The translations under genes were made by a program, and so were the position numbers. This document shows positions 7,502-46,531 of a stretch of DNA of 64,000 nucleotides, piece by piece; position 1 is the stretch's first letter; every line of letters starts with the position of its first letter. The notes under the pieces were generated by a model. That model saw nothing but the letters and a program-made list of their open reading frames with translations. It did not search any database and was not told where the DNA came from. The stretch lies in the NCBI GenBank assembly GCA_020279385.1, contig GCA_020279385.1_4762.2; one strand, written 5' to 3'. The stretch comes from a phage.

Positions 7502-8449
7502 ATGACGTATAACCCGTTTACAAAAACTACCGCTACACTTAATGATTTCTTCGATGCTCCAGAAGATAAACTGCCGGAAGGTGTGCATTTGATTGATATG
7601 TCGCAGCTTATGATTGCTACTATCTCGCATACCTTTAAACCGGAAGACCCTATTAGTGAAGGCATGATCCGTCATCTTATTCTTGACACCATGCGTTATA
7701 ATATGACAAAATTCAAAGAGCAATACCCAATTACGGTACTTGCCTTTGATTCAAGCAAAGGTTACTGGCGACGTGATATCGCCCCTTACTATAAACGCAA
7801 CCGTAAGGAAAAACGAGACGCAGATCCGCGTGATTGGGAGATGATCTTTGCTGCGATCAATAAGATCACCGAAGAGTTTAAAGAGAACATGCCTTATCAC
7901 GTTATTAAGGTTGACAAAGTTGAAGCGGATGATATAATCGCTGTGTTAACTAAAAAGTTTTCTGTAGAAGGTCGCCAGGTGCTAATCAACTCCGGCGATG
8001 GTGACTACACACAGTTGCACAAATACAAAAACGTGAAACAGTGGGCGCCAGTACAGAAAGCATGGAAGAAATGCAAATATGGTAGCCCTTACAAAGACCT
8101 TATGGTAAAATGTGTTAAGGGTGACGCAAAAGACGGTGTAGCTTCGATCAAGTGCCGTAGTGATTTCATTATCTCACGACTGGAAGGAGAACGAGCTAAA
8201 CCAATTGCAACCAAATGGTTAGAGCAAATTTTCGATGCCGAAGATCCAAAGTCTTTGATGACAGAGGAAGAAGCACGACGCTTTGACGAAAACCGCGAAC
8301 TTATTGATTTTGAATTTATTCCTGATAACATCGAATATGAAATTTTGTTAGCATGGGAAAAATCTAAACCAGCACCACGCGGTAAAATTTATAACTATTT
8401 TGTAACAAATGCGTTAGTTAAAATGTTGCAGAAAATTGGTGAGTTCTAA
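7502..8449 (+). CDS. rnh: RNase H (5'-3' exonuclease, FEN family)
   Basis: 315 aa; GYWRRDIAPYYKRNR, ADDIIAVL, GDGDYTQLHKY, IYNYFV blocks match T4 RNase H as recalled. Confidence 0.9.
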   Translation: MTYNPFTKTTATLNDFFDAPEDKLPEGVHLIDMSQLMIATISHTFKPEDPISEGMIRHLILDTMRYNMTKFKEQYPITVLAFDSSKGYWRRDIAPYYKRNRKEKRDADPRDWEMIFAAINKITEEFKENMPYHVIKVDKVEADDIIAVLTKKFSVEGRQVLINSGDGDYTQLHKYKNVKQWAPVQKAWKKCKYGSPYKDLMVKCVKGDAKDGVASIKCRSDFIISRLEGERAKPIATKWLEQIFDAEDPKSLMTEEEARRFDENRELIDFEFIPDNIEYEILLAWEKSKPAPRGKIYNYFVTNALVKMLQKIGEF

Positions 8450-26785: not shown

Positions 26786-28268
26786 TATCATTAACCAGCT
26801 TGCAGCGACCGACAAAACATCGCTGAAAGAAAAGATTCTGAAAGAATCCGCGAGCAATGAAACGCTGAAAGAATGCTTTTATCTGGCATATTGCAAACAG
26901 GTTACGTTTGGCGTAAAGAAATACGATAAACCATCGCGCTATTCGTCTGTATTGTCTTTATCCGGTGCATTACAGGTCTTTAAAAATAAACTTGCCACGC
27001 GTCAAGTAACTGGTAATGCAGCATTACAGCTAGTTACCGATACTCTGACTTGCTTGTCAGAGGATGATGCTAAAGTTGCAATGATGGTCCTGAATCGTGA
27101 TCTGGAATGCGGTTGTTCCGCCACCACTGCAAACAAGGTATGGAAGAAACTGATCCCCCAGCAGCCGTGTCACCTTGCATCGTCATATTCTGATAAGGCT
27201 ATTGCTAATATCAAGTATCCGGCGTATGCACAACTTAAAAGCGATGGTGCTCGTGGTATGGCTGATATTGACGGGGAAACATTAGCAATCTATACCCGTT
27301 CAGGTAATACCTATCAGGGACTTGATGATTTGTTTGCGGTTTTAGAGCGTCTACGAGGCCGTGGAATTGTTCTAGATGGCGAATTGGTATATATGCCTAC
27401 CCTTTCGCAAACACCAGCGCAGAACTTCGTTGAGAGCGTTTATGATGGTACTCTGTCATGGATATTTGAAGAAGAGGAAATGCCATTAACGCCAGTAGCG
27501 GAAGCAGTAAAAGAATCCGTTGTTGCAGACCGTCAGACCGGAAATGGTATCCTCAACAAATCACTTAAAGGAACTATTCCAAAAGAAGAAGCCCAATGTA
27601 TTGTTTATACTGTCTGGGATGTTATCGACCGTGATGTGTATTACGGAAACGAGAAAGCAACGAAGCAATATAAAGATCGATTCGAAGAACTAAAACAGAT
27701 TGTTGAAGAACTTAACGATCCTCGTGTTCAGATAATCGAAAATACTGTAGTTAACAATATCGATGAAGCTCGCGAAGTATATCATCGCTATGTAAACATG
27801 GGCTTAGAAGGTATTATCCTTAAAAATTTACATGGTGTATTTGAAGATCGTCGCAGTAAAGATCAGGTTAAATTTAAAGAAGTGATTGACTTCGACGCTG
27901 AAATTGTTGATGTATATCCGCATAGTAAAGATCCTAATAAGGTAGGCGGTTTTACTGTCCGTAGTGCGTGCGGACGAATGATGACTAACACCGGATCGGG
28001 ATTAACCGACACCACAACCGAAAAAGGTGATGATGGTATTGAACGTGTAATTCCGTTCGATCGTCGAAATGAACTCGACCGAGAAATGTTATGGGCTGAC
28101 CGTCATAACCTGATTGGAAAAGTCATTGAGATGACATGCAACGGGTACATTCGCAGCAAATCACGTAAAGAAGATGAACCGGAGTTCTCTTTATTTCTCC
28201 CGATCATCAAACGTATTCGCTACGACAAGACCACTGCAAATACAGTAAAAGAGGTATTCGATGTGTGA
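26772..28268 (+). CDS. 30: ATP-dependent DNA ligase
   Basis: Ligase motif I KYPAYAQLKSDGARG and LDGELVY resemble T4 gp30 as recalled (KFPAFAQLKADGARC, IDGELVY); start set at ATG after GAGGTGA. Confidence 0.9.
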   Translation: MSILNIINQLAATDKTSLKEKILKESASNETLKECFYLAYCKQVTFGVKKYDKPSRYSSVLSLSGALQVFKNKLATRQVTGNAALQLVTDTLTCLSEDDAKVAMMVLNRDLECGCSATTANKVWKKLIPQQPCHLASSYSDKAIANIKYPAYAQLKSDGARGMADIDGETLAIYTRSGNTYQGLDDLFAVLERLRGRGIVLDGELVYMPTLSQTPAQNFVESVYDGTLSWIFEEEEMPLTPVAEAVKESVVADRQTGNGILNKSLKGTIPKEEAQCIVYTVWDVIDRDVYYGNEKATKQYKDRFEELKQIVEELNDPRVQIIENTVVNNIDEAREVYHRYVNMGLEGIILKNLHGVFEDRRSKDQVKFKEVIDFDAEIVDVYPHSKDPNKVGGFTVRSACGRMMTNTGSGLTDTTTEKGDDGIERVIPFDRRNELDREMLWADRHNLIGKVIEMTCNGYIRSKSRKEDEPEFSLFLPIIKRIRYDKTTANTVKEVFDV

Positions 28269-28737
28269 TAATGAAGGGGCGAAAGCCCCTAAACCTAAAA
28301 AATTGTCAAAGAAAGAGCAACGCCAGATCCTGAAAATGAAATACGGTGGACGTTGTGCCTATTGTGGCGAGGAACTAGGGGATCGCTGGCACGCAGACCA
28401 CATCAAACCAGTATTGCGACGCTCAAAAGTAGTCTATGATGAAAATGGACGAATTGCCCGTAATGATGATGGATCGTGGAAGTATAAGGTTGTAGGAATG
28501 CATAAACCGGAACATGATATACTTGATAACATGAATCCGTCGTGTGTGCAATGCAATCTTTATAAAAGCTGTATGGGCTTAGAATACTGGCGTAAGTGTA
28601 TACGCGAGAACTTCCAGAAATACATTCAGCGCAATATGGGGTTGCGAGCGGCTAAACGCTTTGGCTTACTGTCAATCCACGACCAGCCAGTAGAATTTTA
28701 TTTCGAAAAGTATGAGCGCGAGCATCAAGAAAAATAA
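28261..28737 (+). CDS. HNH endonuclease (small, free-standing)
   Basis: CAYCGEELGDRWHADHIKP...NMNPSCVQCNLYK: HNH His-Me finger with Cys pairs. Confidence 0.75.
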   Translation: MCDNEGAKAPKPKKLSKKEQRQILKMKYGGRCAYCGEELGDRWHADHIKPVLRRSKVVYDENGRIARNDDGSWKYKVVGMHKPEHDILDNMNPSCVQCNLYKSCMGLEYWRKCIRENFQKYIQRNMGLRAAKRFGLLSIHDQPVEFYFEKYEREHQEK

Positions 28738-28750
28738 TTCAAAAAAGTTG

Positions 28751-28779
28751 TTGACAGGGGATCACCGATCCCCTATACT
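28751..28779 (+). promoter_or_regulatory. PeSL-type early promoter
   Basis: TTGACA - GGGGATCACCGATCCCC palindrome as 17-nt spacer - TATACT; then ...CGAAACGA...AGGAGAATCAA leader. Confidence 0.55.
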
Positions 28780-28813
28780 ACACACATACCGAAACGAACT
28801 AGGAGAATCAATT

Positions 28814-28993
28814 ATGAACTTCAACGAAATCATCGCTAAAATCCGCTACAACGAAGAAACCATTGAACTGATGCAAAACAATATCACCAATGGTTATATG
28901 ATTGCAGCGTCACAAGAAATCATTGATTTGACGGTAGCAGAAAATGCTCAGTTGAAACATCAACTTTCAACGGCTGGCGTGATTGTTATGTAA
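28814..28993 (+). CDS. Hypothetical small protein (59 aa)
   Basis: ATG after AGGAGAATCAATT; track ORF 28712.. starts inside the previous gene. Confidence 0.45.
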   Translation: MNFNEIIAKIRYNEETIELMQNNITNGYMIAASQEIIDLTVAENAQLKHQLSTAGVIVM

Positions 28994-29010
28994 TAAAGAG
29001 AGGTGACTAA

Positions 29011-29313
29011 ATGGCAAAAGTTAAGGTAGGCGAGGTCTTCAAAATGGAAGACCACACCGTGGAAGAGATGAAAGGCGCAGTATTGAAAGTAACTAATTCA
29101 ATGTGTCGTAGTGTGCTTTACATCAACTTTATAGACGGTGATGTGTGGTGGGCTAGCGATAGCGATAAATGGGATATCAAGTTCTACAAAGGTCATACTC
29201 ACTGGTTAGGAACAGAGGATGTTGTAGAAGTTCTGGCGGTTGATGTTATGCCAGGCGAGATCGAAAGTCTTAGCGGAACCGCAAAAGAAGCATTGACACG
29301 CCATTTTGTGTGA
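29011..29313 (+). CDS. HxHW-motif small protein, paralogue 1
   Basis: ...KFYKGHTHWLGTEDVVEVLAVDV... Confidence 0.55.
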   Translation: MAKVKVGEVFKMEDHTVEEMKGAVLKVTNSMCRSVLYINFIDGDVWWASDSDKWDIKFYKGHTHWLGTEDVVEVLAVDVMPGEIESLSGTAKEALTRHFV

Positions 29314-29370
29314 TATAATATAACAATCATTGGGAGGGGTAATACTCTCCCACAAATTGAGGATAATATT

Positions 29371-29562
29371 ATGTGTGGTCTTAAAATGGTTGCTGAATAT
29401 AAGCGAACTGGTAATATTATTATGTATCGACGCAATGCCAACGAAGACTGGAAACCTTCCAACCGCATTAAATCCATCCAGACGTTTATGAATAACATCA
29501 AAGAAAACCTTTTCGTTAAGCGTGTTGGCGCTGAACATTGGGAAGTTTACGAAGCTGTATAA
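29371..29562 (+). CDS. Hypothetical small protein (63 aa)
   Basis: ORF with AGGATAATATT ATG start context. Confidence 0.35.
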   Translation: MCGLKMVAEYKRTGNIIMYRRNANEDWKPSNRIKSIQTFMNNIKENLFVKRVGAEHWEVYEAV

Positions 29563-29578
29563 TTTTGAGGAAAATATT

Positions 29579-29881
29579 ATGGAACGTACCAATTTGTTTG
29601 TAACCGAACCTTTCGTTGAAGGAAACAAGAACCTTGCTAATACGGTTATTCTTTACGAAGATTGGATCTTTTACATCGATGAGAATTTAGATGTATATTG
29701 TCGTCCAACCCCAAATGACTCATTCTATATCGAAGAAAACGATACCCATAATCATTGGTATGACGGAAACGACGAAACCGATCTTGCTATTGTTCTCGAA
29801 TCCGGCGTAGAATCGGAACATGCCGATGAAGTAGCAGACAAATTTATGAAATACGCATATAAAGATAAAGTTGAAGAATAA
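29579..29881 (+). CDS. HxHW-motif small protein, paralogue 2
   Basis: ...IFYIDENLDVY...NDTHNHWYDGNDETDLAIVLE... Confidence 0.5.
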   Translation: MERTNLFVTEPFVEGNKNLANTVILYEDWIFYIDENLDVYCRPTPNDSFYIEENDTHNHWYDGNDETDLAIVLESGVESEHADEVADKFMKYAYKDKVEE

Positions 29882-29889
29882 AAAAGTTG

Positions 29890-29918
29890 TTGACAGGGGA
29901 TCGGTGATCCCCTATAAT
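29890..29918 (+). promoter_or_regulatory. PeSL-type early promoter
   Basis: TTGACA - GGGGATCGGTGATCCCC - TATAAT. Confidence 0.55.
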
Positions 29919-29951
29919 GCACACATACCAACGAGATATAGGAGAATCAAA

Positions 29952-30119
29952 ATGTTCCAGACTAAAGCAGAATGCGAAGCATACATTGTAGCAAACCACG
30001 GTGAAGACTACCTGAAATTCGATATCGTAGTAGCACAGAAGATCACCGGAATGGTTGCAAAATATCTAGGTGTTAAAGAAGGTTACTATCCAAGCAACGC
30101 ACCAGAAATTAACAAATAA
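29952..30119 (+). CDS. Hypothetical small protein (55 aa), duplicated cassette copy 1
   Basis: MFQTKAECEAYIVANHGEDYLKFDIVVAQKITGMVAKYLGVKEGYYPSNAPEINK; near-identical to 33212..33379. Confidence 0.55.
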   Translation: MFQTKAECEAYIVANHGEDYLKFDIVVAQKITGMVAKYLGVKEGYYPSNAPEINK

Positions 30120-30122
30120 TAG

Positions 30123-30151
30123 TTGACAATGATTAAAGGGAGTAGTAAGAT
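30123..30151 (+). promoter_or_regulatory. PeSL-type early promoter
   Basis: TTGACA - 17 nt - TAAGAT within GGGAGTAGTAAGATACTCCC stem-loop. Confidence 0.45.
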
Positions 30152-30183
30152 ACTCCCATCAAGACAACAAACGGAGAATCAAA

Positions 30184-30363
30184 ATGAAAGCTATCGAAGT
30201 TCAGAAGTACATGGAACTCATCATTGAAGGTAAAGCACATACAGTATTGACTACCAACGTAGGATATGATAAAAATGTGCATATGCTGGTAGACAATATC
30301 GGCTGGATGAAGTTTAATCCTAATGAGAATGTACAAGCTCAAGAAATGACCATCCCTTTCTAA
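30184..30363 (+). CDS. Hypothetical small protein (59 aa)
   Basis: MKAIEVQKYMELIIEGKAHTVL...; ATG after GGAGAATCAAA. Confidence 0.4.
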   Translation: MKAIEVQKYMELIIEGKAHTVLTTNVGYDKNVHMLVDNIGWMKFNPNENVQAQEMTIPF

Positions 30364-30375
30364 GAGGAATATATT

Positions 30376-30654
30376 ATGATGCGAATTACTGCAACGCTGG
30401 ATAAGACACACAAAGAAAGATTTTTCGGTATGATCTTAAAAACGCCGATTTTCGATAATTACCTTTATGTTGACTATGAAGGCCATATTAGCTATAAATG
30501 TAAAAATGATATTCGTGATTCCTTTGGTGATAAATCACAAGCTGATATTCACGATCATTGGTGGACCTTCGACGAACCTTTACGGATTATCGCAGTTGAT
30601 GTAAAAACAATAAAAGAAGCTGATAAGGTAGTTAACGATTATGAGCAAATTTAA
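30376..30654 (+). CDS. HxHW-motif small protein, paralogue 3
   Basis: ...YLYVDYEGHISY...ADIHDHWWTFDEPLRIIAVDV... Confidence 0.55.
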   Translation: MMRITATLDKTHKERFFGMILKTPIFDNYLYVDYEGHISYKCKNDIRDSFGDKSQADIHDHWWTFDEPLRIIAVDVKTIKEADKVVNDYEQI

Positions 30655-30850
30655 AGACTATAAAGCATATCAACAGATCCTGCGAGTATACGCACCAGAG
30701 TTCGCCGAAAAGATGATGGAAGATGCATCAAAATGCCCGTCCTTTTCTGGAAACAAAAACCATTATTCGACTGGTATTGTGTCATGGAAAGAAACCGCAT
30801 ATACTCAACAATGGATAGATGTGTTTTCAAAAACTCTTGAGTGGTGTTAA
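30641..30850 (+). CDS. Hypothetical small protein (69 aa), MSKFKDY paralogue A
   Basis: MSKFKDYKAYQQILRVYAPEFAEKMMEDASKC... Confidence 0.5.
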   Translation: MSKFKDYKAYQQILRVYAPEFAEKMMEDASKCPSFSGNKNHYSTGIVSWKETAYTQQWIDVFSKTLEWC

Positions 30851-30852
30851 TT

Positions 30853-31068
30853 ATGAGCAAATTTAAAGATTATCGAGCATATAAAGCGATCTGCGATATA
30901 TTCGATGAAAAGACCGCTCATGAAATGATGGAAGATGCAGAACAATATGAATCATTCGTCAATTCCAAAGATTGCACAGTAAACGGGATTGTGTGCTGGA
31001 AAGATACAAAGTATGAAGAAAAATGGATTACCGTGTATTACGGAGAACTAGAATATGAAATTAACTAA
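30853..31068 (+). CDS. Hypothetical small protein (71 aa), MSKFKDY paralogue B
   Basis: MSKFKDYRAYKAICDIFDEKTAHEMMEDAEQY...; tandem paralogue of previous ORF. Confidence 0.5.
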   Translation: MSKFKDYRAYKAICDIFDEKTAHEMMEDAEQYESFVNSKDCTVNGIVCWKDTKYEEKWITVYYGELEYEIN

Positions 31069-31375
31069 AAAGATTTTCCCAGAATTGCGTAACTGTCTGT
31101 TATTGGTTACTGAATATAAGCCGTATACGATCTACTTGTATGTTGATGAAAATCTGAAAATCCGTTACTATGATTATACGTCTCCAGTGATGAAATCATT
31201 TGCTCACTCGATAGCAAATAACTGTATGAATCACAATCATTGGGTATCAGAAACGGATGACGATGCGTCAGAAGTTGTAGTGGTTGCATGGAATCTATCA
31301 CCAGCGGAAGCAGATCAAGCACGCATTAAGCATTATGCGAAAAACAATTGGTTTGACCTTATAAGTGAGGACTAA
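31055..31375 (+). CDS. HxHW-motif small protein, paralogue 4
   Basis: ...YLYVDENLKIRYY...NHNHWVSETDDDASEVVVVAWN... Confidence 0.5.
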   Translation: MKLTKKIFPELRNCLLLVTEYKPYTIYLYVDENLKIRYYDYTSPVMKSFAHSIANNCMNHNHWVSETDDDASEVVVVAWNLSPAEADQARIKHYAKNNWFDLISED

Positions 31376-31379
31376 TATT

Positions 31380-31658
31380 ATGTTCAAAGTAGGTGATAAG
31401 TTTATTCTTAGTCGTGATATTCTCCCTAATCTGAAAGGTTGTATCATCAATCCTAGTAAAAATTCATGGTTTTATCTGTTTATCGACGACAAACTGAATG
31501 TACGCGCAGAATATAAAGAAGGTCTTCGTACTGGTCTAGGTTTCTTTCACGATCATGATCATAGCCATTGGTTAAACGGTGGATTCGAAGCAACGGTGCT
31601 AGCGGTTGACGTGACCTACACAAACATCATAGAAAAATATCAAAAAATTATTTTATAA
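31380..31658 (+). CDS. HxHW-motif small protein, paralogue 5
   Basis: ...FYLFIDDKLNVRAEY...HDHSHWLNGGFEATVLAVDV...; ATG after GTGAGGACTAATATT. Confidence 0.55.
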   Translation: MFKVGDKFILSRDILPNLKGCIINPSKNSWFYLFIDDKLNVRAEYKEGLRTGLGFFHDHDHSHWLNGGFEATVLAVDVTYTNIIEKYQKIIL

Positions 31659-31664
31659 AAAGTG

Positions 31665-31693
31665 TTGACACCGGATCGGGGATATAGCATAAT
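31665..31693 (+). promoter_or_regulatory. PeSL-type early promoter
   Basis: TTGACA - 17 nt - CATAAT inside GGGGATATAGCATAATATCCCC stem-loop. Confidence 0.5.
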
Positions 31694-31739
31694 ATCCCCA
31701 TCGAAACGAGATACACTTTCTAACTAGGAGAATCAAATT

Positions 31740-32027
31740 ATGGCATACATTACTATCACTCTGAAAGTTAACAAATTTGCTCACGCTGCACACGAAACAG
31801 ACAATGCAATCCGTAACAACAAGTTCGCACGTCTGGTACGCGATGCAGTAGCTAAAGAGTTCAACTTCAAATTTGCAGACGGTAAAGTTATCACTAAATG
31901 GACTCATGACGGAGAAACTAAAGTAGAACTTGCTGATAACTTCGCAAATCAGGAATATGCACACCGTCGCATTAATGAAATTATCAGCGATGAACTCTAC
32001 TACGGTGTACAGGAAGGACTGTTTTAA
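31740..32027 (+). CDS. Hypothetical protein (95 aa)
   Basis: ATG after AGGAGAATCAAATT. Confidence 0.5.
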   Translation: MAYITITLKVNKFAHAAHETDNAIRNNKFARLVRDAVAKEFNFKFADGKVITKWTHDGETKVELADNFANQEYAHRRINEIISDELYYGVQEGLF

Positions 32028-32030
32028 TAT

Positions 32031-32056
32031 ACGGGGCGTTAAGCCCCACCCCTTTT
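32031..32056 (+). terminator. Stem-loop / terminator
   Basis: GGGGCGTTAAGCCCC hairpin followed by ACCCCTTTTCATCC. Confidence 0.45.
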
Positions 32057-32080
32057 CATCCAACTATTGAGGATAATACT

Positions 32081-32389
32081 ATGAAAGATAATATCTTTGA
32101 ATTTACCCGCGAAAATCTCCCAATGTTCCGAAAGTCTCTGCTTAAACTAGAGAACAGCAATTACAACGTATATTTTTACATCACCGAAGACCTAGAGATC
32201 CTTTACGCAGATTATCCAGGTCCGATCCGTACCTTCGAAGAAGCATCGCAGTATAAAAATGTTCACGGTCATGAGCACTGGTTACGAGAAAACCCAGGTC
32301 GCAAGAAAGCACGCGTTAAAGTGTTGGCGATTGACATAACACCAGCATACGCCGACCGGATTGCACTGAATGATTATTTGTCTAAATGA
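32081..32389 (+). CDS. HxHW-motif small protein, paralogue 6
   Basis: ...YFYITEDLEILYAD...HGHEHWLRENPGRKKARVKVLAIDI... Confidence 0.55.
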   Translation: MKDNIFEFTRENLPMFRKSLLKLENSNYNVYFYITEDLEILYADYPGPIRTFEEASQYKNVHGHEHWLRENPGRKKARVKVLAIDITPAYADRIALNDYLSK

Positions 32390-32395
32390 TTTCAT

Positions 32396-32426
32396 TAGCC
32401 GACCTTAGTGTCGGCTTTTTTATTTC
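32396..32426 (+). terminator. Rho-independent terminator
   Basis: AGCCGACCTTAGTGTCGGCT hairpin followed by TTTTTTATTTCC. Confidence 0.65.
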
Positions 32427-32444
32427 CAAAAATTAAAAAAGTTG

Positions 32445-32473
32445 TTGACACCTGATCACGCCTATAGCACAAT
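32445..32473 (+). promoter_or_regulatory. PeSL-like early promoter (weaker -10)
   Basis: AAAAAAGTTGTTGACA ... CACAAT, then ACACACATCGAAACGAGATACCACTTAGGAGAATCAAACA ATG leader. Confidence 0.4.
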
Positions 32474-32513
32474 ACACACATCGAAACGAGATACCACTTA
32501 GGAGAATCAAACA

Positions 32514-32783
32514 ATGGCACTGACTAAAACCACTACCAACTTTGCAAAACGTCACGGCTTCGACCTTGAAATCAATAGCTTTAACGATTACACCCTTCTG
32601 TGTGTATATGAAATCGAAAATGATTGCGAGTGGATGTTCAGCTATCGCGTAAACGAAGACGGATCTTTCACTTGGAACGGAAATATCTATCTTGCACAGG
32701 AAGTAAAAGAAGAACTTCCGGCGACTATCAAAGATGAGAAACATTTACGTCAAGTTTTAAAATTTATTTCTGAAAATATCTAA
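32514..32783 (+). CDS. Hypothetical protein (89 aa)
   Basis: ATG after conserved leader/RBS. Confidence 0.5.
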   Translation: MALTKTTTNFAKRHGFDLEINSFNDYTLLCVYEIENDCEWMFSYRVNEDGSFTWNGNIYLAQEVKEELPATIKDEKHLRQVLKFISENI

Positions 32784-32791
32784 AAAAGTTG

Positions 32792-32820
32792 TTGACACCA
32801 AAGTAAGAACATAGCATAAT
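32792..32820 (+). promoter_or_regulatory. PeSL-like early promoter
   Basis: AAAAAAGTTGTTGACA - 17 nt - CATAAT, then ACACACATACCGAAACGAACTGGAGAATCAAAA ATG. Confidence 0.5.
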
Positions 32821-32853
32821 ACACACATACCGAAACGAACTGGAGAATCAAAA

Positions 32854-33135
32854 ATGAAATTCATCAAAGCAACCGAAATCCTGAAAAACAAAGAAGCATA
32901 CATCGGAAACATCGTTGGTATGAACATTCGCGGCGCTGGTAGCCAGTGGACCAAACTGGTTGATGTTAAAGCTAAAGGCGATAAAATTGAGTTCACTGTA
33001 AAAATGCTTACTCATAACGCACATATGGGTATCAAGACAAAAACGATGGCCGCAGATAAAAGCATCAACTATCAAGATCTGGGCGATTGGTTGAACTGGT
33101 GCAAAATGCACAACATCGAAACTAATCACGAATAA
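32854..33135 (+). CDS. Hypothetical protein (93 aa)
   Basis: ATG after conserved leader/RBS. Confidence 0.5.
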   Translation: MKFIKATEILKNKEAYIGNIVGMNIRGAGSQWTKLVDVKAKGDKIEFTVKMLTHNAHMGIKTKTMAADKSINYQDLGDWLNWCKMHNIETNHE

Positions 33136-33149
33136 TTTTAAAAAAGTTG

Positions 33150-33178
33150 TTGACGGGGATCGGGAGATCCCCTATAAT
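33150..33178 (+). promoter_or_regulatory. PeSL-type early promoter
   Basis: TTGACG - GGGATCGGGAGATCCC palindrome spacer - TATAAT. Confidence 0.55.
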
Positions 33179-33211
33179 ACACACATAACGAAACGAAATA
33201 GGAGAATCAAA

Positions 33212-33379
33212 ATGTTCGAGACTAAAGCAGCATGTGAAGCATATATCATTGAAACCCACGGCGAAGATTATCTGAAATTTGACATTGTAGTAGCACAGAA
33301 GATTGTAGGGATGGTTGCGAAATACCTCGGAGTTAAAGAAGGTTACTATCCTAGCAACGCACCAGAAATTAACAAATAA
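33212..33379 (+). CDS. Hypothetical small protein (55 aa), duplicated cassette copy 2
   Basis: MFETKAACEAYIIETHGEDYLKFDIVVAQKIVGMVAKYLGVKEGYYPSNAPEINK; ~90% identical to the 29952..30119 product. Confidence 0.55.
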   Translation: MFETKAACEAYIIETHGEDYLKFDIVVAQKIVGMVAKYLGVKEGYYPSNAPEINK

Positions 33380-33393
33380 TTTTATAAAAAGTG

Positions 33394-33422
33394 TTGACAG
33401 GGGAGGATAACTCCCCTACAAT
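33394..33422 (+). promoter_or_regulatory. PeSL-type early promoter
   Basis: TTGACA - GGGGAGGATAACTCCCC spacer - TACAAT. Confidence 0.5.
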
Positions 33423-33462
33423 ACAACCATCAAGACGAGATACCACTTAGGAGAATCAAACA

Positions 33463-33714
33463 ATGGCTAACATCGAAACCGCAAAGAAAATCGCTAAAGA
33501 CCTGAACGTTAAAGGCTTCCGTAAACTGAAATTACAGCGTGTACGCTACACCATCGGCAAACAGTGCTCTTTCATGAGCGAAGAAGTTGCTAACAGCCTC
33601 ATTGATAACCTGATTGCGGCTGGCTGGGAAGTTGCGGATCTGAAAACTTGCCGCGAACTGGCTAACAAAGGTCTTTTAGATTCTGTTACTATCAAACCAA
33701 TGGGGGCAGCGTGA
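33463..33714 (+). CDS. Hypothetical protein (83 aa), first gene of coupled operon
   Basis: MANIETAKKIAKDL...; ATG after TAGGAGAATCAAACA. Confidence 0.5.
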   Translation: MANIETAKKIAKDLNVKGFRKLKLQRVRYTIGKQCSFMSEEVANSLIDNLIAAGWEVADLKTCRELANKGLLDSVTIKPMGAA

Positions 33715-33956
33715 AAAGAAAATTAATTAAACGCAATAAGGAATTTCTTAATAACTGCATTAAGGCCGCTAATGGTTGGCCTTTGTTCCTCTTCCTTTAT
33801 GATTGGTATTCTAAACAATCGGTAGAGGAAACACGACACTATAAGAAGATCAGAAAAGAATCATATACAAAACAAGGCCGCATTAACGGACTTTACTTAA
33901 TGTGGCACGGCAAAGAACCTTCTAAAATCTGTGTTGGATTAAAGGGGCGTATATGA
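33711..33956 (+). CDS. Hypothetical protein (81 aa)
   Basis: GTG start overlapping upstream stop (GTGA); basic N-terminus, hydrophobic WPLFLFLYDWY segment. Confidence 0.4.
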   Translation: MKRKLIKRNKEFLNNCIKAANGWPLFLFLYDWYSKQSVEETRHYKKIRKESYTKQGRINGLYLMWHGKEPSKICVGLKGRI

Positions 33957-34669
33957 AACAAAAATTAATATTCTGCAACTTTGACGGATCGGGGATAATG
34001 GGGCTAGAATGGGCTAAAGCAGGTCATAAGGTGATCTGCTTTAATGCTGACGATGGCGACCACGGCACATACAAAAAGTATAATACCCGATTTGAACATC
34101 CAAACATTACCTATGTAAACACATGGATTGATTTGAACTGGCTGGAAAGAGCAATGGACCTTGAATGGGGGAAACCGGATATTATCTTTGCATTCCCACC
34201 GTGCACCAATTTAGCTGTTAGTGGCGCTGCACACTTTGAACGAAAGAAACGAGAACAAGGACCATTGATTCAAGTTCATGATGTAAGGGCAGCTAAAATA
34301 ACCGCTTATTTGGGTGAATGGCTAGGAGTTCCCTACATGATAGAGAATCCTGTAAGCGTTATCTCTAGCATGTGGCGTAAGCCTGATTATATGTTCCATC
34401 CGTGGGAATATGGTGGTTATTTGCCGGAAGATGATAAGCATCCTACGTTTCCTGAGTATATTGCCGCCCGTGATATGTACCCGAAAAAGACTTGCTTATG
34501 GACCGGACAAGGCTTTATGATGCCAGAAAAGAAACCTTTGCAGATTAATAAAGGGTACAGTAAACAGCATTCTAAGCTAGGCGGGAAAGGAACGAAAACA
34601 AAGACTATAAGGTCACTTACCCCGCGAGGATTCGCAAAGGCAGTATTTGAAGCCAATAAGGATCTATGA
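33953..34669 (+). CDS. Cytosine-C5 methyltransferase-like protein (divergent, no obvious target-recognition domain)
   Basis: FCNFDGSGIMG (motif I-like), FAFPPCTNLAVSGA (motif IV-like Pro-Cys), YMIENPVSV (motif VI ENV-like); 238 aa; ATGA overlap with neighbours. Confidence 0.5.
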   Translation: MKQKLIFCNFDGSGIMGLEWAKAGHKVICFNADDGDHGTYKKYNTRFEHPNITYVNTWIDLNWLERAMDLEWGKPDIIFAFPPCTNLAVSGAAHFERKKREQGPLIQVHDVRAAKITAYLGEWLGVPYMIENPVSVISSMWRKPDYMFHPWEYGGYLPEDDKHPTFPEYIAARDMYPKKTCLWTGQGFMMPEKKPLQINKGYSKQHSKLGGKGTKTKTIRSLTPRGFAKAVFEANKDL

Positions 34670-34999: not shown

Positions 35000-35518
35000 A
35001 TGAACCGTTTAACGCCTAAACGCCGCTACTATACCAATACTAAAAACTTTGTTATCTCTGTTTACGAAGCATGGTTAGAAGATGGCTATATCAACATGAA
35101 CCCAGATTATCAGCGTCCTTTAGTATGGGACACCGAAAACAAACGTATGTTTATTGAAAACCTGATTAATGATTTTCCGGTTGGTGCTATCGCAATGGCT
35201 AAGATTGATGATGGCTCTCGCTATGAGATCGAAATCGTGGACGGTAAACAGCGTTTAAACGCAATATTCTCCTTTATGAAGGATGAGTTTAGCATTGCCG
35301 GTAATGATGATTCTATGTTGTATTACAGTGATTTTACGCCAGCAGAAAAGCGACGTTTCCGAAATCTCGGACTACCCGCGATCATGATGGAAGAGAGCAC
35401 ACGAGAAGACCGATTAGAGTATTTCTACAAAACAAACTTTTTCGGTGTGCCTCAATCGGAAGAACATCGCCAGCATGTGATTGCCCTATTGCAAGATGAG
35501 CAATTAAAAAATAACTAA
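35000..35518 (+). CDS. DUF262 (ParB/GmrS N-terminal-like) domain protein
   Basis: DYQRPLVWDTENKRMFIENLINDFPVGAI...IVDGKQRLNAI matches the DUF262 signature (DxQR...W...DGQQR); ATG after CAGGAGA. Confidence 0.6.
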   Translation: MNRLTPKRRYYTNTKNFVISVYEAWLEDGYINMNPDYQRPLVWDTENKRMFIENLINDFPVGAIAMAKIDDGSRYEIEIVDGKQRLNAIFSFMKDEFSIAGNDDSMLYYSDFTPAEKRRFRNLGLPAIMMEESTREDRLEYFYKTNFFGVPQSEEHRQHVIALLQDEQLKNN

Positions 35519-45506: not shown

Positions 45507-46136
45507 ATGCAATACTTTTTCAAGTTCCAAATAGGCGAAAAGTTGATACACGCCCGTGCTTTCACCTTCGGCGAATTTCAAAAACTAGTAGCAGCAAAAG
45601 AGACTGGCAAGCTGTCAGAGGTTGTTATAGAGATCATACATGAATGTACGGGGATCAATGCATTAGAGCTAGAGAAATGCGAAGCAGAATATATTTTTCT
45701 TCTCTTATGGTGTCACAGCCTCAATAAGATGAAAATTGATGCTACTTGGGTGTGTGGTGTATGCAATAAAGAGAAAGTATACTCTCTTGATGTTTCACGC
45801 ACACAGATACCAGAAGTTGAACCGTATATTCTGGACGTAGGACAAGTAAAAATCAAGTTTCGTCAACCTAAGTTTACAGAAGATGTTGATATTATGCAGA
45901 TGGTAATTGCATGTATCGAATATATCGTGATCGGCGATCAGCAATTCAATATAGACGACCTGAACGCACAGGACTTTGACCGCGTGCTGGATATGCTTAC
46001 CACGGATAAAGTGGAAGAAGTGATCGACGAGCTAACAAGAAATCAAATCACGCTGGCAGTACCGATCAAGTGCGAATGCGGGGAATCTGGTGTATATTCA
46101 TTATCAGGTCTATCCAGTTTCCTTAAAATTCTTTGA
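45507..46136 (+). CDS. 26: Baseplate hub subunit gp26
   Basis: 209 aa (T4 gp26 ~208 aa); synteny. Confidence 0.75.
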   Translation: MQYFFKFQIGEKLIHARAFTFGEFQKLVAAKETGKLSEVVIEIIHECTGINALELEKCEAEYIFLLLWCHSLNKMKIDATWVCGVCNKEKVYSLDVSRTQIPEVEPYILDVGQVKIKFRQPKFTEDVDIMQMVIACIEYIVIGDQQFNIDDLNAQDFDRVLDMLTTDKVEEVIDELTRNQITLAVPIKCECGESGVYSLSGLSSFLKIL

Positions 46137-46531
46137 GGTATAACATGGCAACTATTAATCAGATGTATACCGATTTGGATCTCAATATATCCAGATCGTG
46201 GAATAACGACGTTAAAAAGAACATAGGGATTAAAGCGGTTAAGGATTCTATTCTACTGATCGTTACTACTCGCAAGGGATCTCGTCCATTTGATCCACTG
46301 TTTGGATGCGATCTCAATAAATCTTTGTTTGAGAACATGAACCCACTGACGGTGGATACCTTATCAAAAAACATCAATGAGGCGATCCGAAACTATGAAC
46401 CACGGGTCCGAAACCTGACAGTAGAAGTAACTCCGCAGTACGACGATAACTCAATCATAGTATCAATCTACTTTTCAGTAATAGATAACCCGGATGATCT
46501 TGAACAACTACGCATAAGACTTGCAAAGTGA
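46133..46531 (+). CDS. 25: Baseplate wedge subunit gp25
   Basis: 132 aa; TTRKGSRPFDPLFGCDL and FSVIDNPDDLEQLRIRLA match T4 gp25 as recalled. Confidence 0.9.
   Translation: MRYNMATINQMYTDLDLNISRSWNNDVKKNIGIKAVKDSILLIVTTRKGSRPFDPLFGCDLNKSLFENMNPLTVDTLSKNINEAIRNYEPRVRNLTVEVTPQYDDNSIIVSIYFSVIDNPDDLEQLRIRLAK

Follow-up and report, generated by a model that had tools for sequence, protein, structure and literature searches.

The 64,000-nucleotide (nt) phage sequence analysed here, referred to as the window (NCBI GenBank assembly GCA_020279385.1, contig GCA_020279385.1_4762.2), carries between its DNA ligase gene (gene 30) and alt six small genes, p1 to p6, whose products are strongly diverged copies of one domain marked by a His-x-His-Trp (HxHW) motif. 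The unification of these proteins into a six-member HxHW domain family is made here. In the membership tests that were run, the family and its fold could be assigned to no known family or fold, and we therefore count the HxHW proteins as a new family. The newness concerns the protein family and the fold; the family itself is narrow, comprising one phage genus and uncultured sisters. Judged from its sequence, the window belongs to that genus, Krischvirus, that is, the RB49/Phi1/ECD7-like T4-type coliphages ('pseudo-T-even' genus). With the unification, six anonymous genes become one tractable target; they make up about 2% of the gene content of a genus whose phages are components of therapy cocktails.

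Six open reading frames with a common motif

All six open reading frames (ORFs) listed in the original prediction are present, on the + strand: p1 at 29011..29313 (100 amino acids, aa), p2 at 29579..29881 (100 aa), p3 at 30376..30654 (92 aa), p4 at 31055..31375 (106 aa), p5 at 31380..31658 (92 aa) and p6 at 32081..32389 (102 aa). A GAGG/AGGA ribosome-binding site lies 6-9 nt 5' of each. The annotated starts of p2 and p5 are the ATG codons at 29579 and 31380, the frames opening upstream at GTG codons (29522 and 31365, respectively). The motifs read exactly as had been given, namely HTHW in p1 (residues 62-65, nt 29194-29205), HNHW in p2 (nt 29747-29758), HDHW in p3 (nt 30550-30561), HNHW in p4 (nt 31232-31243), HSHW in p5 (nt 31560-31571, within HDHDHSHW) and HEHW in p6 (nt 32270-32281). 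Among the 342 window ORFs of at least 40 aa (36,430 residues), H.HW occurs six times against 0.25 expected from composition, and every occurrence falls in p1-p6 at equivalent positions, residues 57-64.

Two further shared elements had been described, and each was found in modified form. The Y-x-Y-[IV]-D-E element is present, but it lies in an aromatic hairpin at about residues 30-45 and not at the N terminus; the [VL][LV]A[IV]D[VI] strand after the motif is strict in four of the six copies, but reads VLESGV in p2 and VVAWNL in p4. In the wider family described below, invariance is limited to the second His and the Trp. At least 90% of members have the first His (it is Ser in ECD7-type p2 and Asp in the metagenomic protein P0083), and the post-motif Asp position holds Asp, Asn or Gly. 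Since the isoelectric points are acidic to neutral (4.15-6.9, with p2 the most acidic at 4.15) and no N-terminal hydrophobic stretch was seen in the sequences, the six proteins are probably cytoplasmic.

Homology of the six proteins and their relatives

Pairwise identity among p1-p6 is only 21-25%. Most phmmer comparisons of single sequences gave weak E-values (1e-5 to 1), p4-p6 being the exception (3e-13). In leave-one-out searches of the 342 window ORFs with profile hidden Markov models (HMMs), the omitted member was always the top non-training match (E 9.3e-5, 2.7e-4, 3.2e-5, 1e-10, 3e-8 and 1.6e-13), with the next-ranked window ORF at only E 0.09-1.2. The six therefore do align significantly (E 2.7e-4 to 1.6e-13), and these profiles, together with bridging metagenomic relatives and a common predicted order of structural elements, bear out the proposal that they form one paralogous family. 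With the expanded family HMM no further window members appeared at E<=1. An apparent seventh member, the ORF at 46133-46531 (E 0.1-0.3 with the family HMMs), is noise; it is without HxHW, and from its sequence and position we read it as a gp25-like baseplate protein.

A profile search of a word-indexed collection of 5.8 billion proteins returned 76 clusters, all of them orthologues, since each shares 57% identity or more with a member of p1-p6; a second word-indexed protein search contributed little more. The longest contigs of these clusters are phage-sized where long (up to about 176 kb), and many clusters come from short contigs alone. An exhaustive HMMER scan of 1.84 billion cluster representatives yielded just 19 matches at E<=1e-3 and no family homologues outside the clade. 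The new metagenomic members (P0077-80 and P0082-88) are of 84-111 aa, plus one two-domain fusion of 203 aa. P0081 (1034 aa, E 3e-12) was discarded as an additive repeat-unit artefact, its best single domain reaching 12.5 bits with the Trp unaligned. The distant members sort into p1-, p2-, p3-, p4- and p5-like subfamilies and score 17-31 bits against the other subfamilies, thus bridging the family.

Two metagenomic contigs show how these relatives are arranged. The 2.1-kb contig SRR8048117_15661 (L002) carries, back to back, a p1-like gene, a fused double domain, a p3-like and a p4-like gene, that is, four family genes with five domains, three of the genes directly abutting; the fusion, P0077, joins two family domains in 203 aa (L002 823-1434). 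A 20-kb contig (L008), whose ligase is 72% identical to that of Krischvirus, has two p2-like genes in its ligase-to-alt interval. Among isolated phages the metagenomic p2-like protein P0086 matches Krischvirus p2 orthologues only, and a search of IMG/VR with the p2-subfamily alignment gave only two loci, both Krischvirus-type. Taken from these searches, the domain occurs only in Krischvirus and in a small number of uncultured T4-type phages that are its sisters.

In agreement with the statement that this is not a named family, no significant match was found in Pfam, NCBIfam or PADLOC, and no weak Pfam match recurs among 20 members. Each of p1-p6 matches one PHROG at E 1e-48 to 1e-65: phrog_16486 (p1), phrog_15965 (p2), phrog_15972 (p3), phrog_9345 (shared by p4 and p6) and phrog_17255 (p5). 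These five PHROGs contain these very proteins, all as 'unknown function', and stand as separate unannotated families whose link is only hinted at by weak cross-matches (E 7e-5 to 0.06). The Phi1 orthologues are ORF208, ORF206, ORF203, ORF200, ORF199 and ORF197 for p1 to p6, respectively. The family is not described in the RB49/Phi1 genome papers searched, nor was it found by a full-text literature search for the HxHW motif.

Predicted structure and comparison with known families

AlphaFold2 models were built with family alignments for two members, p5 (predicted local distance difference test score, pLDDT, 86.5; predicted template-modelling score, pTM, 0.81) and p6 (pLDDT 87.9, pTM 0.82). Both models run from a first strand through a helix, three strands and a variable loop to a short helix that starts at HxHW, and end with a further strand and a C-terminal helix; p6 has an extra helix in the loop before HxHW. 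In a Foldseek search of BFVD with the p5 model, only Krischvirus proteins were found at E<=0.03; these are of paralog-like size (88-106 aa), with template-modelling (TM) scores of 0.63-0.73 and 18-25% identity. The expectation of a common fold is thus supported both by the two models and by the match of p5 to independent BFVD models. The family profile compared with all PDB sequences gave a best E of 0.73. The models describe a small alpha/beta domain of about 90-105 aa, a confident predicted fold without a significant known relative.

Paired histidines followed by an aromatic residue are known from metal sites: JAB/MPN (JAMM) proteins have E...HxH...S..D, and the zinc site of alpha-carbonic anhydrase contains 'HFHW'. 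The HxHW proteins resemble both in the H-x-H pair, the aromatic residue after it and an acidic residue on a later strand. Membership in JAB/MPN, including PROCT, was rejected as below significance, judged by a Pfam match above the gathering score and an invariant E...HxH...S..D; a weak match to PROCT (JAB-like) occurs in one member, at E 0.0017. The papain-like, NlpC-P60 and transglutaminase-like cysteine peptidases, for which a conserved helix-borne catalytic Cys, sheet residues His and Asp/Asn and significant fold similarity were required, also stayed below significance. For Tad2 (DUF2829), the anti-Thoeris sponge, there was no match to Pfam DUF2829, and Foldseek against the BFVD DUF2829 model gave E ~1. 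The similarity to Tis1 (6ox6_B), AcrIIA7 (8kbi_A) and Tad2/DUF2829 (9eib_A), which are small inhibitor, immunity and sponge proteins of phages or bacteria, is below significance (Z <5, 7-11% identity) and is best read as a resemblance of class rather than membership.

Two T4 groups were also rejected. Pfam T4_Y03C (PF25721) scored 13.4 bits against a 27-bit cut-off in one of 20 members, and with the family HMM none of eleven small proteins encoded between 39 and 61.1 of T4 exceeded 2.4 bits or had HxHW; among them are dexA.1 and dexA.2, which, to judge by UniProt naming, may be Y03C. The encapsidated internal proteins of T4-type phages share a conserved capsid-targeting sequence at the N terminus; p1-p6, by contrast, all begin differently (MAKVKVGE, MERTNLF, MMRITAT, MKLTKK, MFKVGDK, MKDNIFE), and their genes follow sigma-70 early promoters.

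Directly upstream of p1, eight Krischvirus phages have an 88-aa ORF that is absent from the window (UPWr_E1, L007 2014-2277; JSE, FL20, FL15, pEJ01, G37-3, G2248 and G2494). It has the family hairpin (IIYVTEDDV) and strand (VHLLAHSV), but HPGNGH in place of HxHW, and aligns with the family at P = 0.004 (hhalign). The BFVD protein C4MZ33 of JSE, probably this same ORF, has a TM score of 0.63-0.66 to the p5 model. The 88-aa ORF is probably a degenerate, variably present seventh member.

Location and expression context

Fifty-nine GenBank phage records match window positions 28000-34000 at 90-99% identity (megablast), with Escherichia, Enterobacteria, Shigella or Krischvirus as first word of the organism name and one 'Phage ELT4'. 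The matches listed include ELT4, ELT3, ECD7, Makalu, kvi and JK32, and all records that were inspected are assigned to Krischvirus. Annotated relatives have, in this order, cd, 31, 30.3, the DNA ligase gene (30), an HNH endonuclease gene, some 20 small ORFs labelled 'hypothetical', a gene for a Dcm-like methyltransferase, and alt. The six HxHW genes sit within the block of small ORFs, and what had been called an accessory region is thus the hyperplastic region (HPR) of a T4-type phage, between ligase and alt.

In the HPRs of RB49 and Phi1, repeats made of a strong sigma-70 promoter and a GC-rich stem-loop, termed PeSL, lie between small ORFs without homologues (ORFans) (Arbiol et al. 2010, PMC2839356). 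The window has seven repeats of this type, at 28741-28811, 29880-29950, 31653-31714, 32433-32494, 32782-32852, 33140-33210 and 33382-33443, each combining an AT-rich tract with the promoter elements TTGACA and TATAAT (TATACT at 28741) and, in the spacer between these, a GGGGATC..GATCCCC stem. The HPR location, the seven repeats and the small ORFs without homologues outside the clade are those of PeSL-flanked ORFan cassettes, and both the interval between gene 30 and alt and the repeat architecture agree with those reported; in that work, however, the ORFs are taken to be unrelated ORFans shuffled by PeSL recombination, and neither these ORFs nor their paralogy is mentioned (Arbiol et al. 2010, PMC2839356).

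Three of the repeats head the units, all on the + strand, in which the HxHW genes lie, and their promoters are of the TTGACA-17-TATAAT type with GC-rich stems. The repeat at 28741..28811 heads a 59-aa ORF at 28814, p1, a 63-aa ORF at 29371 and p2. That at 29880..29950, with 12 of 12 sigma-70 consensus positions, heads a 55-aa ORF, the ORF at 30184, p3, a tandem pair (30641/30850), p4 and p5. The third, at 31653..31714, heads a 95-aa ORF at 31740 and p6. A hairpin with a T-run that resembles an intrinsic terminator (32397..32416, + strand) lies directly 3' of p6, where Makalu_003 also has an annotated terminator, and is followed by the next PeSL-type repeat (32433-32494). Because the six genes sit in three units headed by sigma-70-type PeSL repeats, we predict that they are transcribed immediately early by the host RNA polymerase.

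Possible signs of cassette movement were observed around these units. In many relatives similarity to the window begins at 28725-28742, that is, at the first PeSL, and at this point Phi1, kvi, PHB13 and TB34 carry an extra ORF210 cassette that the window does not have, which fits PeSL-mediated insertion or deletion. Moreover, a 242-nt direct repeat with 84% identity (29879-30120, MFQTKAECEAYI..., and 33139-33380, MFETKAACEAYI...) comprises a PeSL and a 55-aa ORF; it is a whole cassette duplicated.

Proposed function

We tentatively favour, at somewhat less than even confidence, the reading that p1-p6 are non-enzymatic early accessory binding proteins with a shared His/Trp site for a metal or ligand and with paralog-specific surfaces. 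Under this reading the HxHW proteins would bind host or defence components as accessory factors; the invariant His/Trp patch, usually His-x-His-Trp, would form a common binding site for a metal ion or small ligand, and the hypervariable, indel-prone loops beside HxHW, together with subfamily-specific surfaces, would give each paralog its own specificity. It is favoured because the His/Trp patch lies at a loop-to-helix junction flanked by variable loops, and because the proteins are small, acidic and, as predicted, early, with several differentiated copies kept. A role in host interaction or counter-defence, as had been suggested, is plausible from the predicted early expression and the genomic context. 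The suggestion that the His pair and Trp would bind a metal or ligand is weakened, since the first His and the Asp of the LAVDV strand are not universal.

The same residues could instead belong to a minimal enzyme, for example a His-dependent hydrolase or phosphodiesterase or a metal-dependent one, in which the conserved His residues would be catalytic, assisted by the Asp/Asn of the next strand, and the paralogs would act on different substrates. We consider this rather unlikely.

It also seems unlikely that the HxHW domain is an unrecognised fold class of phage counter-defence protein. Such a protein would be small and oligomeric and act as a binder or 'sponge', its His/Trp pocket taking up either an immune signal derived from a nucleotide or the metal cofactor of a defence effector. 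If this were true, the six old Krischvirus paralogs would be a panel neutralising several different host systems in one phage.

Conservation, loss and selection

With the expanded HMM, exactly six members in the same order were found in eight of nine Krischvirus-type loci (the window, Makalu_003, Phi1, AV108, PHB13, kvi, UPWr_E1 and the ECD7-like L011). Each paralog is 80-100% identical among relatives, and the ratio of nonsynonymous to synonymous substitution (dN/dS; Nei-Gojobori, pairwise, seven genomes) is 0.149, 0.163, 0.150, 0.138, 0.110 and 0.312 for p1 to p6, compared with 0.041 for the ligase and HNH genes; the remaining small ORFs of the region range from 0.04 to 0.52. Orthologues vary mostly at their very ends and in the loop on each side of HxHW, with indels in p1, p3 and p6, and the hairpin, the HxHW motif and strand 5 are constant. 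Unlike the shuffled PeSL ORFans of Arbiol et al. (PMC2839356), the six HxHW genes are stable across the genus. The conserved order and the low dN/dS among genomes indicate that p1-p6 are anciently duplicated, each under purifying selection, and largely fixed.

Losses do occur. p6 is frameshifted and truncated in JSE and kvi, and in a 150-kb IMG/VR contig (UViG_3300045988_033703, L012, about 7684-8120) some 2.4 kb, corresponding to window positions 31581-33954, are deleted, so that p5 breaks off shortly behind HSHW and p6 is missing along with six more ORFs up to the Dcm-like gene. Going by these genomes, at least p5 and p6 are dispensable in nature. As for the copy-number variation that the original prediction proposed to look for, the number is fixed at six in eight of the nine loci, but the deletion and a sister lineage with two copies do provide cases of it.

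A fixed set of six would also be expected if the paralogs were subunits of one hetero-oligomer, or if they had to dimerise and the His site lay between the partners, six then reflecting stoichiometry. Copy number and order in the eight loci speak for it, the two-domain fusion P0077 gives a hint of the Rosetta-stone kind, and two His per chain would be in keeping with the need of an inter-subunit metal site. We nevertheless find it improbable, as JSE and kvi have p6 only as a pseudogene, the IMG/VR contig has lost both p5 and p6, the sister lineage has two p2-like copies only, and the fusion, seen on one 2.1-kb contig only, could be due to a lost stop codon.

The original prediction took the six for fast-diverging copies, apparently under diversifying selection; in a fuller form this would make them an arms-race family that duplicates and diverges rapidly as it tracks variable host defence or receptor targets. 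Their setting in a hyperplastic, PeSL-shuffled accessory region agrees with such a model, as do the variable loops and indels beside the motif among p1, p3 and p6 alleles, the deeper allelic divergence of p2 (dS 0.64) and p6 (dS 0.34; the top dN/dS, 0.31), the different copy numbers of distant lineages (six, at least five domains on the 2.1-kb L002, and two) and the possible degenerate seventh member in only eight phages. However, the gene-wide dN/dS of 0.11-0.31 is well under 1 for all six and points to purifying selection, the composition and order of the array are identical across the genus, and the divergence between paralogs is saturated and unreadable as a rate. Furthermore, the subfamily splits are older than the genus: because the divergent metagenomic relatives already fall into p1-p5-like subfamilies, the 20-25% identity between paralogs reflects age, not speed. 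Diversifying selection is thus not supported for the set, and we regard the arms-race model as quite unlikely. That the ORFs are functionless evolutionary passengers of PeSL cassettes, with the motif a relic, is hardly credible: all are ORFans without a known homologue and some copies have been lost without killing the phage, but the genes show purifying selection, with intact frames and ribosome-binding sites in nearly all genomes, the His and Trp are invariant at a depth where ligase is only 72% identical, and the predicted fold is confident.

Neighbouring genes and the TB34/SAP comparison

The HNH endonuclease gene (28261-28737) shares 8 nt with the 3' end of the ligase gene and stops shortly ahead of the first PeSL. 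The Krischvirus loci inspected also have it (Phi1 ORF212, PHB13), with same-sized ORFs in Makalu_003, AV108, kvi, UPWr_E1 and TB34. Between p3 and p4, the adjoining ORFs 30641-30850 (69 aa) and 30850-31068 (72 aa) are tandem paralogs, both of phrog_8471 (unknown function), and a homologue also occurs in the sister-lineage contig L008 (9451-9657).

According to a 2026 paper, Krischvirus phage SAP has glucosyl-hydroxymethyl-cytosine in its DNA and TB34, 99.96% identical, does not, with no pathway genes known (PMC13390438). In TB34, p5 has a 1-nt insertion that shifts the frame at codon 53, just before HxHW. We rejected this frameshift as a cause of the difference in modification, the indels being assembly errors; it carries no weight because about 40 similar single-base 'frameshifts' in the TB34/SAP variant table hit essential replication genes too, including DNA polymerase, clamp, topoisomerase, ribonucleotide reductase and a recombination protein (PMC13390438). 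In the same table C>T and G>A changes at Pro (CCN) codons account for nearly all substitutions, and essential genes contain most of the indels (PMC13390438). These variants look like base-calling or assembly errors, perhaps at modified cytosines, and not like biology. Over the 9.5 kb from ligase to alt, the only differences between TB34 (L013) and SAP (L014) are five indels of 1 nt and, in SAP, a PeSL duplication of 79 nt.

Downstream of the small-ORF block, the gene at 33953-34669, labelled a Dcm-like C5-methyltransferase after its relatives, has no Pfam match at E<=0.01, and two genes after it lies a gene for a GmrSD_N (DUF262/ParB-like) domain protein (35000-35518, E 4e-20). Both genes deserve attention, given that some Krischvirus phages are reported to modify cytosine by a pathway not yet known (PMC13390438).

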